Assembly (NCBI GenBank): GCA_016840425.1
Contig: JAEOSI010000078.1
Location: forward strand, 1 to 9,006
Source: Candidatus Wukongarchaeum yapensis
GTDB taxonomy: Archaea > Asgardarchaeota > Wukongarchaeia > Wukongarchaeales > Wukongarchaeaceae
Direction of reading: 5' to 3'
DNA: 9,006 bases
Shown piece after piece: positions 1,392 to 5,328 of this stretch (position 1 is its first letter; every line of letters begins with the position of its first letter). The notes beneath the pieces are model-generated. The model had not been told where the DNA came from, ran no database searches, and saw only the letters and a list, made by a program, of their open reading frames with translations. The translations under genes were made by a program, and so were the position numbers.

Positions 1392-2984
1392 TTAGGATTT
1401 CTTTTTAGTTAAAATCATACCTAAGACTAATAATGCACCAACTATTGCGACTAAAACCAAGGAAAGCGCGCCGCCTAAAAAATTTGAATCTTCTTCTGAT
1501 GTGCTTGTTACTGTCACGGTCACCATATCGGTAATAGTGTTACCACAATCATCTATAACTATACAAGTATATGTATAGTTCCCGACTGAAAGCCCATCAA
1601 CACTTACTGTAATAGAACCACCGTTCCAAGATTCTTGGATAACGATGGTGCCATCTCTGGTTATCGTGTAGTTTGAAGGGTTTATGTCTGAAGCATACCA
1701 AGTGATGTTATGCCCCGTGGTATCCTCTTCATATGTTATATCATCAGGATTATCAATATAAGGTGAAACATATACCTTCATCAACTTTGTAACAGAGGCA
1801 GTAGAAGCCAGTAACACATATCCTCCATCGATAGTTTCATCACCCCCAAAAACAGAACCTGCTTCTCCATACGTCCTATTCCACAAAAAATCACCGTTTT
1901 CGTTGGTCTTAATTAATAATATTTCTTCAAACCAATGTAACGATGTTGAACCTATTATTATATATCCTCCATCACTTGTCTGATGAACGTATTCCCCTTT
2001 ATCCATGCGTGGAATATCGGATTCTTTAATCCATACCGCATTTCCATTTTCATCAGTTTTAATCAACAAAACATCATCAAATTCTACACCATAACTTGTG
2101 GTGCCTATTATTATGTATCCTCCGTTAGAAGTTTGTTCAACACACTTGCCAATATCATCGCCTACTATTCCGTAAGTTTTATTCCATAAATGGTCTCCTT
2201 TTTCGTCCGTCTTAATCAACCACACATCAGAAACTCCAAAGTAATCTTTTCTGCCTGTTATTATGTATCCTCCATCAGAAGTTTGTCTAACAAAATAACC
2301 TTCGTCAGCAAAACCTGTTCCACCATCATAGGTCTTGTTCCATTCAACGTCACCTTTTTCATCCGTCTTAATCAACCACACATCTCCATCAACACCGTAA
2401 GAGACTGTGAAACCTGTTATCACGTATCCTCCATCAGTAGTTTGCTCGACACATTGTCCTCCATCCCACCCTGTTCCACCGTATGTATAGTTCCACTCAA
2501 GGTCACCGTTAACATCGGTTTTAAGCAACCACAGATCTTTATCATCAGGGATTAAACTGTAAGATTCTGTGTATCCTACTATTATATATCCGTCATCAGA
2601 AGTCTGTTGAATAAAACGCCCGTAATCTCCTCTTTCTCCTCCATACATTTTATCCCACATTATGCTTCCATAAACGTCGGTTTTAATCAATAAAAGTTTG
2701 GGATAACCGTTAAGAAAAGAGCTATTTTTAGCTAAGAATATGTACCCACCATCGGAAGTTTGTTGAACACATTTTCCGTTATCATAACTGTAATCTTTAT
2801 TCCAGACAATAGTATCACTCGTTCTTTCTGTAGTTTGCAGTGCAGTAGCTGTAGGCACGGTAATTAATATTGAAAAAGTTACAAACAATATGAGAGATAC
2901 CAATAATGTTTGTTTGGTTTTCTTCCTGCCATTAAAATAGCTACTACTCTTGAAAATTCTTCTAAAGTTTCTCATTGAAATCAT
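1392..2984 (-). CDS. Cell-surface glycoprotein: signal peptide, 7-bladed beta-propeller, Ig-like beta-sandwich, C-terminal TM anchor
   Basis: Basic n-region and hydrophobic h-region ending in ATA (aa 1-48). Seven about 50-aa repeats (QT.DGGY.I.G...D.WLIKTD..G...W..TYGG). Beta-rich domain aa ~408-493 (PDDITYEEDTTGHNITW...GNYTYTCIVIDDCGN). S/T/E linker, TM helix aa ~502-525, KKKS tail. Eight N-x-S/T sequons, all in the ectodomain. Confidence 0.88.
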   Translation of the reverse strand: MISMRNFRRIFKSSSYFNGRKKTKQTLLVSLILFVTFSILITVPTATALQTTERTSDTIVWNKDYSYDNGKCVQQTSDGGYIFLAKNSSFLNGYPKLLLIKTDVYGSIMWDKMYGGERGDYGRFIQQTSDDGYIIVGYTESYSLIPDDKDLWLLKTDVNGDLEWNYTYGGTGWDGGQCVEQTTDGGYVITGFTVSYGVDGDVWLIKTDEKGDVEWNKTYDGGTGFADEGYFVRQTSDGGYIITGRKDYFGVSDVWLIKTDEKGDHLWNKTYGIVGDDIGKCVEQTSNGGYIIIGTTSYGVEFDDVLLIKTDENGNAVWIKESDIPRMDKGEYVHQTSDGGYIIIGSTSLHWFEEILLIKTNENGDFLWNRTYGEAGSVFGGDETIDGGYVLLASTASVTKLMKVYVSPYIDNPDDITYEEDTTGHNITWYASDINPSNYTITRDGTIVIQESWNGGSITVSVDGLSVGNYTYTCIVIDDCGNTITDMVTVTVTSTSEEDSNFLGGALSLVLVAIVGALLVLGMILTKKKS

Positions 2985-2987
2985 TCG

Positions 2988-2993
2988 TCCCTC
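2988..2993 (-). promoter_or_regulatory. Shine-Dalgarno-like GAGGGA
   Basis: The minus strand reads GAGGGACGAATG. The paralog at 5328 has GAGGGATGAATG. Confidence 0.55.
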
Positions 2994-3012
2994 TTTTTAT
3001 TCCGTAACTTTT

Positions 3013-3441
3013 TTACGCTATTTTTTCGTCCATTGCGCGGGTTAGGTCTGAGTATTTCACCCCTTTGATTGTGTTGATTTTTTCTGTTAGTTCCTTTATT
3101 TTTTCAGGGTTTCCCTTAACAACTAGCACTTCTAGGCAGTTTTCTTTGTCTAGGTGGATGTGCATACCGCTGATTATGGTGCCTCTGAAGTGGTGTTGTG
3201 TGTGAGTTAGTGATTCGTTTACTCCTTTGGTTTCGTGGTCGTAGATGAAGGTTAAAACGCCTATTACTTCTTCTTCTCCTCCTTCTTTCCAGGCTTCTTC
3301 GACTAAAAAGCCTCTTAAGGCGGTGCGGATGACGTCGGATCTGCTGGCATAACCCTTTTTATTGATAACATCGTCAATGTTCTTCAATAACTCTTTAGGA
3401 ACGGAGATTGTTATTCTTTCGATCTTTCTCCTTTCACTCAT
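3013..3441 (-). CDS. nikR: Nickel-responsive transcriptional regulator NikR
   Basis: N-terminal ribbon-helix-helix (RITISV...GYASRSDVIR) plus ACT-like domain. H83, H94, H96 and C102 (TQHH...MHIHL...NCLEV) match the E. coli high-affinity Ni ligands H76/H87/H89/C95. SD-like GAGGT at 3449-3453. Confidence 0.96.
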   Translation of the reverse strand: MSERRKIERITISVPKELLKNIDDVINKKGYASRSDVIRTALRGFLVEEAWKEGGEEEVIGVLTFIYDHETKGVNESLTHTQHHFRGTIISGMHIHLDKENCLEVLVVKGNPEKIKELTEKINTIKGVKYSDLTRAMDEKIA

Positions 3442-3471: not shown

Positions 3472-3507
3472 TCATACTTAATTAAAGTATATTTGTTACT
3501 ATTTAAG
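3472..3507 (-). promoter_or_regulatory. Candidate nikR promoter/operator region
   Basis: The minus strand reads CTTAAATA (TATA-like, 3500-3507), then GTAACA-N16-GTATGA (3472-3499). This encloses the inverted repeat ATACTT-N5-AAGTAT (3474-3490). Confidence 0.35.
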
Positions 3508-3520
3508 CTAAAATTTTTTA

Positions 3521-3557
3521 ATAATCATATTATCATAATCATTGTAATTATCATAAT
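3521..3557. repeat. Short AT-rich repeat array (ATCAT x4; ATTATCATAAT x2)
   Basis: ATCAT at 3524, 3532, 3538 and 3550. The palindrome ATTAT-C-ATAAT occurs at 3529-3539 and 3547-3557. Confidence 0.7.
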
Positions 3558-3612
3558 TTTTTGAATCTTAATTAAGCAATATGCGTTTGAACAAAGGATC
3601 ATGTTTTTTGAT

Positions 3613-5328
3613 TTATGAGATTTCCCATTCTTCTAGTTTTTCTCCGCAATTTGGGCATTTTCCTTTGATTTTTAACCATTCTTTTAAGTGGCTGCGGTGA
3701 GCGTAAGCTTGACAGCAAGGAGTTTTTGTATGATCTTTTAAAATTGATAATTTACAGATAATGCATATTTGAAACTTTTCGCCGCATTTTTTACAGGAAG
3801 TGGCACTCATCTTTATTGCGGCACCACAATTGGGACAAGGCAAAGTAAAATAGGTTTTTTTCACTATTCTGCTTGTTATATCTTGTTTAGTTGGAGATGA
3901 GAGAAACGTTAAAATTAAAACAATACTAAAACAAAAAATAATGAAGATTGCTGCTAAGTAAAAACCGCTTATACCTGTGTTATCATCAATCGGAAAATCA
4001 GAACCAATAGAACCTCCATCTGCTTGAACCTTAATCAACCAAACATCAGAATCACCAGCACCGTAAGATTCTGTTTTGCCCGTGATTATGTATCCTCCGT
4101 CTGGGGTTTGCCTTACACAATAACCATAATCCTCTTCTGTTCCTCCGAAAGTCTTGCCCCATATACTGTTGCCATCTTCATCGGTTTTAATTAACAAAAG
4201 ATCCACTCCGCCAGAACCATATGAGTTTGTGACTCCTGTGATTATGTATCCTCCGTCCATGGTATGCTTAACACAATAACCCTCCTCCCAGTCCTTTCCT
4301 CCATAAAGTTTATTCCATTCTTCGGAACCATTTTCATCAGTCTTAATCAACCAAACATCATCATTAGGACCAGAACCAGTAACTGATGTAATTCCCGTAA
4401 TTATGTATCCTCCATCTGCAGTCTGTTCGACCCACGTACCCCAATCCCAACTTGACCTATCATATATTTTATCCCACTCCTTGTTACCATTTTCATCGGT
4501 TTTTACCAACCAAAGAGCCCTACCAAAATCATAAGAATATGTCCAGCCTGTGATTATGTATCCTCCGTCTATTGTCTCTTCAACACAATAACCCTCATCA
4601 GCATTTGTTCCTCCATAGGTTTTATTCCATATAGTTTTGCCTTCTTCATCGGTTTTAATTAGCAAAAAATCCGACCAATAATCACTATAGGATGATGTCC
4701 AACCTGTGATTATGTATCCTCCATCCGTAGTCTGCACAACACAATAACCACATTCCCTACCTGTTCCTCCATATGTCTCATCCCATTCCTCGACACCGTT
4801 ATCATCAGTTTTAATCAACCAAACATCACTATAACCCACACCATAAGATGTAGTATAACCTGTTATTATATATCCTCCATCAGCAGTCTGCTTAACACAA
4901 TAACCCCATTCCCATCCGGTTCCTCCGTAGGTTTTACTCCATAAAATTTTAGCGTTTTCATCAGTTTTAATCAACCAAATATTACCATGTTCAGCACCGT
5001 AAGATTCTGTACCACCAACTATTATGTATCCTCCATCTGAAGTTTGCTCAACACATCGACCGTCATCAAGGTCTGTTCCGCCATATGTTTGGTTCCATTC
5101 ATTTGTTTCATTGTAGTTGTTATTGTTTCTCGCATTCTCTACGCTAATTGTTGTTTTTGTTTGTGGGATTGATGGGGTCATTTTTGGTATTTCTCTAAAT
5201 GTTATTGGTATCACTAATATAATTGAAACAGTTAAAACGAAAATTAGAAATGTTACTATTAGTTGTTTTGGCTTCCTTACACGATTTAAAATCTTAAAAA
5301 TACCCCGAAATCCCCTCATAATAACCAT
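3613..5328 (-). CDS. Membrane protein: N-terminal signal/anchor, 7-bladed beta-propeller, TM helix, zinc ribbon, RING-type domain (putative transmembrane E3 ligase)
   Basis: Hydrophobic aa 23-43. Seven about 52-aa propeller repeats at aa ~78-434. TM aa ~453-476. C498-x2-C-x10-C-x2-C515 zinc ribbon. C522-x2-C525...C538C539-x4-H544-x2-H547-x3-W551...C558-P-x-C561 RING-like motif. Confidence 0.88.
   Translation of the reverse strand: MVIMRGFRGIFKILNRVRKPKQLIVTFLIFVLTVSIILVIPITFREIPKMTPSIPQTKTTISVENARNNNNYNETNEWNQTYGGTDLDDGRCVEQTSDGGYIIVGGTESYGAEHGNIWLIKTDENAKILWSKTYGGTGWEWGYCVKQTADGGYIITGYTTSYGVGYSDVWLIKTDDNGVEEWDETYGGTGRECGYCVVQTTDGGYIITGWTSSYSDYWSDFLLIKTDEEGKTIWNKTYGGTNADEGYCVEETIDGGYIITGWTYSYDFGRALWLVKTDENGNKEWDKIYDRSSWDWGTWVEQTADGGYIITGITSVTGSGPNDDVWLIKTDENGSEEWNKLYGGKDWEEGYCVKHTMDGGYIITGVTNSYGSGGVDLLLIKTDEDGNSIWGKTFGGTEEDYGYCVRQTPDGGYIITGKTESYGAGDSDVWLIKVQADGGSIGSDFPIDDNTGISGFYLAAIFIIFCFSIVLILTFLSSPTKQDITSRIVKKTYFTLPCPNCGAAIKMSATSCKKCGEKFQICIICKLSILKDHTKTPCCQAYAHRSHLKEWLKIKGKCPNCGEKLEEWEIS
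4085..5034. repeat. Nucleotide-level blade repeats of the propeller, 153-159-nt period
   Basis: ATTATGTATCCTCC starts at 4085, 4241, 4400, 4553, 4709, 4865 (1 mismatch) and 5021. It is exact at 2110 and 2260 in the paralog. Confidence 0.9.

Follow-up and report, generated by a model that had tools for sequence, protein, structure and literature searches.

Two neighboring seven-bladed propeller proteins of an Asgard archaeon are probably members of a modular surface-protein family, one carrying a zinc-ribbon and RING tail

The window analyzed here is the whole 9006-bp contig JAEOSI010000078.1 of Candidatus Wukongarchaeum yapensis (assembly GCA_016840425.1), which is contig C57 of a 2.16-Mb metagenome-assembled genome (MAG) with a completeness of 92%. 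Two of its minus-strand genes encode proteins built on a seven-bladed propeller with different C-terminal ends. In P0002 the propeller is followed by a transmembrane (TM) helix, a zinc ribbon and a RING-like finger, while P0001 ends in a PKD/Ig-like stalk, a TM helix and the residues KKKS (Table 1). Our analysis indicates that P0001 and P0002 are probably members of a lineage-specific, modular Hodarchaeota (Asgard) surface-protein family with fast turnover, rather than a dedicated two-component unit.

The original prediction, made from the sequence alone, had described two same-strand genes with a common seven-bladed propeller, one ending in an Ig-like stalk, TM helix and KKKS and the other in a TM helix, zinc ribbon and RING. 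Open reading frames (ORFs), structure models and profile matches bear out this description. A single-blade hidden Markov model (HMM) recovers exactly 7 blades of ~52 amino acids in each protein, and AlphaFold2 models contain 28 strands arranged as 7 four-stranded blades in each, with a mean predicted local distance difference test (pLDDT) of 85.0 for P0002 (blades at residues 78-434 in the model) and 83.8 for P0001 (residues 58-405). The top solved match in Foldseek is the 7-bladed CylK propeller (PDB 7roo; E 8e-25, 24% identity, root mean square deviation 2.7 Å), followed by seven-bladed lectins from Photorhabdus (E ~1e-9). No propeller model in Pfam or NCBIfam, PF17164 and TIGR02608 included, matched P0001 or P0002; two relatives, P0007 and P0021, exceed the Pfam DUF5122 cut-off with 36.9 and 47.2 bits. 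Both proteins thus resemble CylK, the DUF5122 or 'delta-60 repeat' propellers and the Photorhabdus PLL/PHL lectins in their 7-bladed, 4-stranded fold. CylK, however, has an N-terminal catalytic partner domain that P0001 and P0002 lack, and the likeness to the PLL/PHL lectins is one of fold. Searching the literature for the repeat (DUF5122, delta-60, WLIKTD) returned nothing specific. The stalk of P0001 is modeled as a 7-strand beta-sandwich, and its profile finds the PKD domains of KIAA0319L (E 8.8e-11); the Pfam model K319L-like_PKD (PF22352) gives 21.5 bits, below its cut-off of 27.

The two proteins are part of a larger set. A rare 5' leader and an N-terminal motif are common to at least six propeller paralogs encoded in the genome. 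Besides P0001 and P0002, the full-length paralogs are C45 (639 amino acids, two stalks and a TM helix), C237 (497 amino acids, TM helix only) and C43 (480 amino acids, TM helix only), named here after their contigs, and C32 and C154 are short or cut. P0002 has 52-54% identity with C237 and C45, 46-48% with the RING-tailed P0131 and 45% with P0001 (44-45% in BLASTP, E 5e-87). The best match of P0001 is C45 with 46-48% identity, and P0001 is among the paralogs least similar to P0002. In blade-by-blade scoring, the blades do not correspond by position in any of the protein pairs, the diagonal mean being equal to the off-diagonal mean, so the 45% identity reflects a strongly conserved repeat consensus and not a recent duplication. 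The mean score among a protein's own blades is 90 for P0001 and 152 for P0002, and the blades of P0001 are the most degenerate. A maximum-likelihood tree of 25 propellers (IQ-TREE) takes the form of a star with P0001 as its longest branch. In approximately unbiased (AU) tests neither a P0001+P0002 clade (p 0.32) nor one uniting the four RING-tailed propellers (p 0.18) is supported or rejected; the former bears on the sisterhood of the two propellers, for which the original prediction had proposed a phylogeny.

Across the family, the propeller cassette of leader, N-terminal anchor and 7 blades is joined to three endings: a TM helix only, one to two PKD/Ig stalks with a TM helix, or a TM helix with zinc ribbon and RING. 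The last of these also occurs well outside the propellers. In this genome the RING tail is found on eight ORFs with varied N-terminal modules, including soluble proteins with HEAT (C139), TPR (C104) and winged-helix repeats (C152), and a search with the tail retrieved 2902 representative clusters at E <= 1e-3. Of the best 136 clusters whose tail is complete, 85 also have an upstream TM helix, which is directly adjacent in 48. The ectodomains that bear it include propeller, vWA + Ig, CBM96, Kelch, LVIVD, SBP_bac_5 (family-5 solute-binding protein), NosD-type beta-helix and Big_7 domains. The TM, zinc-ribbon and RING tail is a mobile module on many unrelated ectodomains, and the earlier idea of a modular system that combines a propeller with alternative C-termini holds at the level of the family.

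Further combinations were noticed alongside these endings. P0122 consists of a propeller, Ig stalk, TM helix, winged-helix-like domain, ribbon and RING. The winged-helix-like cytoplasmic domain is conserved; it lies between TM helix and ribbon-RING in P0122 (~residues 560-690) and likewise in P0129 (C197, TM only), and is a further exchangeable module. P0131 (541 amino acids, propeller-TM-ribbon-RING) lies directly upstream of P0133 (CBM96-TM-ribbon-RING) on the Joint Genome Institute (JGI) contig Ga0209636_10006827, positions 4331-7099. Positions 6534-11481 of this contig are 99.9% identical to contig C181 of the MAG studied here, whose end falls within the CBM96 gene. A second propeller-RING gene is therefore present in the organism but was lost from the MAG assembly, and the MAG under-represents the propeller-RING family.

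The N-terminal part of the family shows the same modularity. The original prediction had pointed to like N-termini (MISMRNFRRIFK and MVIMRGFRGIFK) and to a leader, GAGGGA(C/T)GA, immediately 5' of the ATG in both genes. Both features are present as described, yet they are not special to P0001 and P0002: the leader (T)TTTATGAGGGAYRA abuts the start codon in all six propeller ORFs that have an N-terminus, and an HMM of the family N-termini matches the six propeller paralogs only. Throughout the genome, GAGGGAYRA precedes 7 of 1218 long ORFs, five of which are propeller paralogs. A further one of the seven encodes C27, whose LVIVD repeats are combined with the same signal and C-terminal anchor. 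The C27 and C45 genes encode unrelated ectodomains but are ~76% identical in DNA over 150 nucleotides upstream and the first codons, and ~77% identical over the 3' anchor. Since upstream, signal and anchor DNA are common to both, leader, signal and anchor behave as cassettes, which suggests that cassettes may be exchanged among surface-protein genes. The N-terminal hydrophobic helix of P0002 could be either a signal anchor or a signal peptide. We also considered a class III (pilin-type) signal and rejected it, as the alignment of N-termini contains no cleavage motif directly before the hydrophobic stretch. The short-form paralogs C45 and C32 begin with MVLN. On contig C45 a remnant that resembles the long-form N-terminus (RDF..GF), broken by a stop codon, lies just upstream of position 1974 (minus strand); long and short N-termini seem to interconvert.

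The pairing of P0001 with P0002 is not conserved in related genomes. In the same-genus MAG Candidatus Hodarchaeota archaeon DZ1B.339 (completeness 87%) the corresponding locus contains rpl3-rpl4-rpl23-rpl2, nikR, a methyltransferase, a PIN-ATPase-KH gene and UbiA, while P0001 and P0002 are absent. The genes nikR (91%), methyltransferase, PIN-ATPase and UbiA are kept at 87-91% identity. Using blastn, the window aligns to this MAG at positions 3008-3459 (89% identity) and 5425-9006 (87%), leaving out a segment that contains P0002 and its flanks. The end of rpl2 takes the place of P0001 and the neighboring HEAT gene, and window positions 1-3007, which contain these two genes, have no match above 73% in the whole same-genus genome. 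At the edges of the missing P0002 segment there is neither a target-site duplication nor an inverted repeat, so no mobile element can be named. The best protein match to P0002 in the same-genus genome is ~48% identical, and the best family matches to the paralogs of our genome reach 55-70% protein identity compared with ~90% for neighboring genes. The two nikR loci of a same-order genome have no propeller or RING genes. Of five propeller-RING genes with known context, P0002 and P0122 have a tail-less propeller neighbor; P0051 (557 amino acids, with the architecture of P0002) and P0212 are without a propeller neighbor, and P0131 adjoins the CBM96-TM-RING gene without a tail-less one.

Within the species, which is present at marine-sediment and marsh sites, three other samples, taken in other studies, have contigs that span the P0001-nikR, nikR-P0002 and P0002-methyltransferase junctions at about 100% identity, demonstrating that the gene arrangement is not an assembly artefact. 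Some joints in other-sample contigs have sides that measure at most 38 letters and lie inside repeated blades; we read them as cross-matches to other propeller genes rather than deletion variants. In a further MAG, GCA_976602455.1, L077:13769-16681 (a molybdopterin-oxidoreductase region) is 96.9% identical to C47:552-3471 of this genome, and the rest of the two examined loci matches at <=79% or not at all. A recent transfer or a binning problem is possible for this region.

The cytoplasmic tail of P0002 is well predicted by AlphaFold2 for both zinc ribbon and RING. In the tail alignment seven of the eight zinc ligands of the RING are invariant, the eighth, C538, being replaced in P0130. It is the first of an adjacent pair, as RING ligands 3 and 4 (C538-C539) follow each other directly, which is unusual; read from the sequence, the ligand spacing appears cross-brace-like. 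Also invariant or nearly so are the Ile after ligand 1, the Trp four residues after ligand 6 and the Pro after ligand 7. In classical RINGs these positions contact the ubiquitin-conjugating enzyme (E2), as in the c-Cbl/UbcH7 interface. Among PDB entries the tail profile matches IFT144/WDR19 best (8e-10 and 7.8e-7), followed by WDR24, WDR59 and MIOS of GATOR2 (to ~1e-5). Classical RING ubiquitin ligases (E3) are matched as well, namely RNF126 (2.8e-5), Arkadia (3.6e-5), synoviolin (5.8e-5), RNF38 (6.8e-5) and AMFR (1.6e-4), and the profile reaches ZNRF3 (E 0.013) and RNF24 (0.018).

Two UQ_con E2 genes (on contigs C135 and C109) are found in the genome, as is ubiquitin, whose gene is adjoined by a small RING ORF, C109_16387_16737. 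A soluble Asgard E1/E2/RING cascade has been reconstituted with an active RING E3 (preprint 10.1101/2023.07.25.550441), and the same preprint cites a ubiquitin cascade from Caldiarchaeum (Hennell James et al. 2017). Given the retained E2-contact residues, the E2 and ubiquitin genes and the reconstituted soluble cascade, P0002 is best read as a membrane RING ligase, and a receptor-like membrane RING E3 is a plausible assignment for it. The basic N-terminus, the two hydrophobic helices and the basic stretch after the second helix would place the propeller outside and the tail inside the cell. In the open literature searched we found no account of receptor-like membrane RING proteins in archaea.

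P0001 ends differently. Its C-terminal motif, consisting of an acidic-Phe element, a TM helix and a basic tip, is common to five surface proteins. The tripartite layout and the presence of a sortase gene are as in the Asgard Loki-CTERM and Heimdall-CTERM systems: the genome contains an exosortase/archaeosortase-family gene (PF09721, 54.2 bits; TIGR04178 signature, 40.7 bits with a cut-off of 23). In contrast to those systems, matches to the curated models come from paralogs and stay below cut-off, with 16.3 bits for C45 (Loki-CTERM, NF033507; cut-off 19.9) and 11 bits for C154 (Heimdall-CTERM, NF045529; cut-off 24). The tail-less ends look like an Asgard type of C-terminal sorting signal, and the most likely role of P0001 is therefore that of an adhesin or lectin-like protein on display at the surface, lacking any output to the cytoplasm and possibly processed by the archaeosortase.

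Taken together, these data are best accommodated by proteins assembled from four cassettes. A promoter-proximal leader with the basic N-terminal motif and the hydrophobic helix would carry the protein across the membrane. Next would come a 7-bladed propeller, consensus-like and of the CylK/DUF5122 type, which, going by its fold, probably binds a surface or glycan ligand, and then zero to two PKD/Ig-like stalk domains. The fourth cassette would be one of two endings, either a C-terminal TM helix with acidic-Phe motif and basic tip for display at the surface, or a TM helix leading into a cytoplasmic zinc ribbon and RING. As with eukaryotic single-pass RING ligases, the tail of P0002 would recruit E2~ubiquitin to the cytoplasmic side of the membrane where the ectodomain is engaged. 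That P0001 and P0002 are neighbors would be due to a variable site around nikR, at which both genes were gained by insertion or from which both were lost.

The original prediction had a different explanation for this neighborhood. P0001 and P0002 would form a functional pair, in which the RING copy signals and the tail-less copy acts as co-receptor, decoy or substrate, similar to eukaryotic receptor-like protein/receptor pairs. That the genes lie 628 bp apart on the same strand and have leader, N-terminal motif and propeller in common fits such a pair, and some of our results count in its favor and against the interpretation we prefer. At least three other samples yielded contigs with an identical P0002-nikR-P0001 arrangement, which is thus fixed in the species as far as sampled. 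In another MAG the RING-tailed P0122 is part of a same-strand cluster with three tail-less copies. Moreover, random placement is unlikely to put two of the ~6 family genes of a 2.2-Mb genome no more than 630 bp apart with just nikR in between (a few percent, by rough arithmetic and not a formal test). With clustering in another MAG, recurrence across samples and close spacing, it is possible that the two tail types are linked in function or regulation. The assignments of the two C-termini meet contrary results as well: Pfam zf-RING_2 scores P0002 at 19.4 bits, below the cut-off of 27.3 (relatives obtain 22.9-25.2 bits, and some pass Prok-RING_1 with 30.1 against a cut-off of 29.1), and P0001 has no match to the curated CTERM sorting-signal models. 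The pair is nevertheless missing from the otherwise conserved same-genus locus and from the same-order nikR loci, P0001 is not the closest paralog of P0002 by identity (45% compared with 52-54%), blade orthology is lacking, and three of the five propeller-RING genes have no tail-less propeller neighbor. In addition, nikR intervenes, and P0001 may share a transcript with nikR rather than with P0002. Complex prediction for the ectodomains (P0002 75-445 and P0001 56-497, both with alignments) returned a score of 0.01 against a mark of 0.32, which is evidence neither way. Overall, the two propellers are not each other's nearest relatives by identity and the pair does not recur in the related genomes compared, so that the refutation which the original prediction named for itself largely applies, the exceptions being the P0122 cluster and the arrangement that is unchanged across samples; we consider a dedicated receptor pair improbable.

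A serious rival, if an unlikely one, concerns the tail itself. The zinc ribbon and RING might be an assembly handle that binds its counterparts on scaffold proteins of the HEAT, TPR and winged-helix types; P0002 would then connect a surface receptor to a scaffold in the cytoplasm, and P0001 would be without this link. IFT144/WDR19 and the GATOR2 subunits WDR24, WDR59 and MIOS outscore the classical E3s in the tail profile, with matches (8e-10 to 1e-5) that cover both zinc ribbon and RING, and soluble proteins of the genome (C139, C104, C152) end in the same tail. The zinc domains of IFT144 and GATOR2, however, end cytosolic propeller-solenoid coat proteins and have mainly an assembly role, and IFT144 is without the two His ligands and the E2-contact Trp. 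P0002, on the other hand, keeps all eight zinc ligands and the three residues of E2-contact type (Ile, Trp, Pro), its genome contains E2 and ubiquitin genes, and a preprint shows a soluble Asgard RING E3 to be active (10.1101/2023.07.25.550441). Finally, P0001 might be a duplicate in decay or without function that persists downstream of nikR as a passenger, in accordance with its long branch in the tree and its degenerate blades, of which blades 1, 6 and 7 are weak. Its reading frame is nevertheless intact over 530 amino acids, its fold is confidently predicted, its leader with a Shine-Dalgarno-like motif is conserved and the listed other-sample contigs that cover it differ at no more than 4 positions, making decay very improbable. 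The explanation we favor is still that of two members of a modular family that came to lie at one variable spot.

Table 1 Coordinates of the features discussed. Positions refer to the window unless a contig is named.
Feature	Position	Strand	Description
P0001	1392..2984	minus	530 amino acids; N-terminal anchor, 7-bladed propeller, PKD/Ig-like stalk, TM helix, KKKS; ORF and AlphaFold2
P0001 leader GAGGGACGA	2985..2993	minus	Abuts P0001 start codon
P0001 propeller	1770..2813	minus	Residues 58-405; blades 1, 6, 7 degenerate
PKD/Ig-like stalk of P0001	1506..1739	minus	Residues 416-493; 7-strand beta-sandwich in model
P0001 C-terminal TM helix	1404..1487	minus	Residues 500-527; acidic stretch and Phe before, KKKS after; sorting-signal layout
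nikR	3013..3441	minus	Ribbon-helix-helix and NikR_C (Pfam NikR_C 1.2e-29); sits between P0002 and P0001
P0002	3613..5328	minus	571 amino acids; N-terminal anchor, 7-bladed propeller, TM helix, zinc ribbon, RING; ORF and AlphaFold2
P0002 leader TTTTATGAGGGATGA	5329..5343	minus	Family-specific; abuts P0002 start codon
Basic N-terminal motif of P0002	5260..5328	minus	Residues 1-23; MxxMRGFRGIFK..LNRxRKxKQ; conserved in family
N-terminal hydrophobic helix of P0002	5203..5259	minus	Residues 24-42; hydropathy; helix 20-39 in model
P0002 propeller	4006..5097	minus	Residues 78-441; seven units of ~52 amino acids; blade HMM, model, CylK match
P0002 TM helix (second)	3901..3972	minus	Residues 453-476; sequence and model
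P0002 zinc ribbon	3784..3837	minus	C498-x2-C501-x10-C512-x2-C515; Pfam Zn_ribbon_3 E 1.5e-5, below cut-off
P0002 RING-like finger	3646..3765	minus	C522-x2-C525-x12-C538-C539-x4-H544-x2-H547-x10-C558-x2-C561; also I523, W551, P559
Segment missing from same-genus MAG	3460..5424		1965 bp, P0002 and flanks; 50 bp there instead; blastn and junction alignment
C27 LVIVD-repeat gene	C27:1634-4066	minus	
C45 propeller gene	C45:55-1974	minus	

The minus-strand gene order is P0002 (5328-3613), nikR (3441-3013) and P0001 (2984-1392), flanked in the window by a HEAT-repeat gene, a methyltransferase, a PIN-ATPase-KH gene and a UbiA prenyltransferase. The stop codon of nikR is separated from the start codon of P0001 by 28 nucleotides (2985-3012), which do not contain an AT-rich box of the type that precedes other paralogs; P0001 may be co-transcribed with nikR. 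Upstream of nikR, at 3518-3556 (minus-strand reading), repeated motifs of the ATGAT(T/A)AT type form an AT-rich run that could be a candidate NikR operator. This run belongs to the segment missing from the same-genus genome, thus the nikR upstream region differs between the two species. The HEAT/PBS-lyase-type repeat gene at 3-1301 (plus strand) is cut by the contig end. Its protein ends without a RING tail, and the related HEAT protein C139 ends in a RING tail that lacks the zinc ribbon.

Membrane-anchored zinc-ribbon and RING receptors are a variation on two known groups, the eukaryotic transmembrane RING ligases and the soluble archaeal RING E3s. With ZNRF3/RNF43 and the PA-TM-RING proteins (RNF13, plant RMR), P0002 shares an N-terminal signal or anchor, a predicted extracellular binding domain, one TM helix and a cytoplasmic RING. 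It differs from them in being archaeal, in its 7-bladed propeller ectodomain instead of a PA domain, in the extra zinc ribbon before the RING and in the ligand set C4-H2-C2, two Cys of which are adjacent. Ubiquitin operons of archaea encode soluble RING E3s, likewise in genomes with E2 and ubiquitin; these E3s are small and cytosolic, whereas P0002 is anchored in the membrane and has a zinc ribbon as well as a large ectodomain. Plant receptor-like proteins and receptor-like kinases resemble the family described here in combining related ectodomains with and without cytoplasmic output. The output in plants is a kinase, whereas here it is a RING, and the pairing is not conserved.

A more far-reaching scenario, which we regard as quite unlikely, is that Hodarchaeota and other Asgard archaea possess a large receptor repertoire whose RING tails couple recognition to ubiquitylation at the membrane, with tail-less neighbors like P0001 tuning the signal in the role of substrate, co-receptor or decoy. 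Eukaryotic cells characteristically control their surface receptors through ubiquitin, and in such a repertoire, if it exists, the transmembrane E3 receptors of eukaryotes would have a prokaryotic precursor. What our data point to is an Asgard archaeon that assembles surface proteins from interchangeable parts, one ending being a membrane-proximal RING that is found on many ectodomains across Asgard metagenomes. If these tails are active ligases, they would offer a direct handle on how ubiquitin signaling first met the cell surface.

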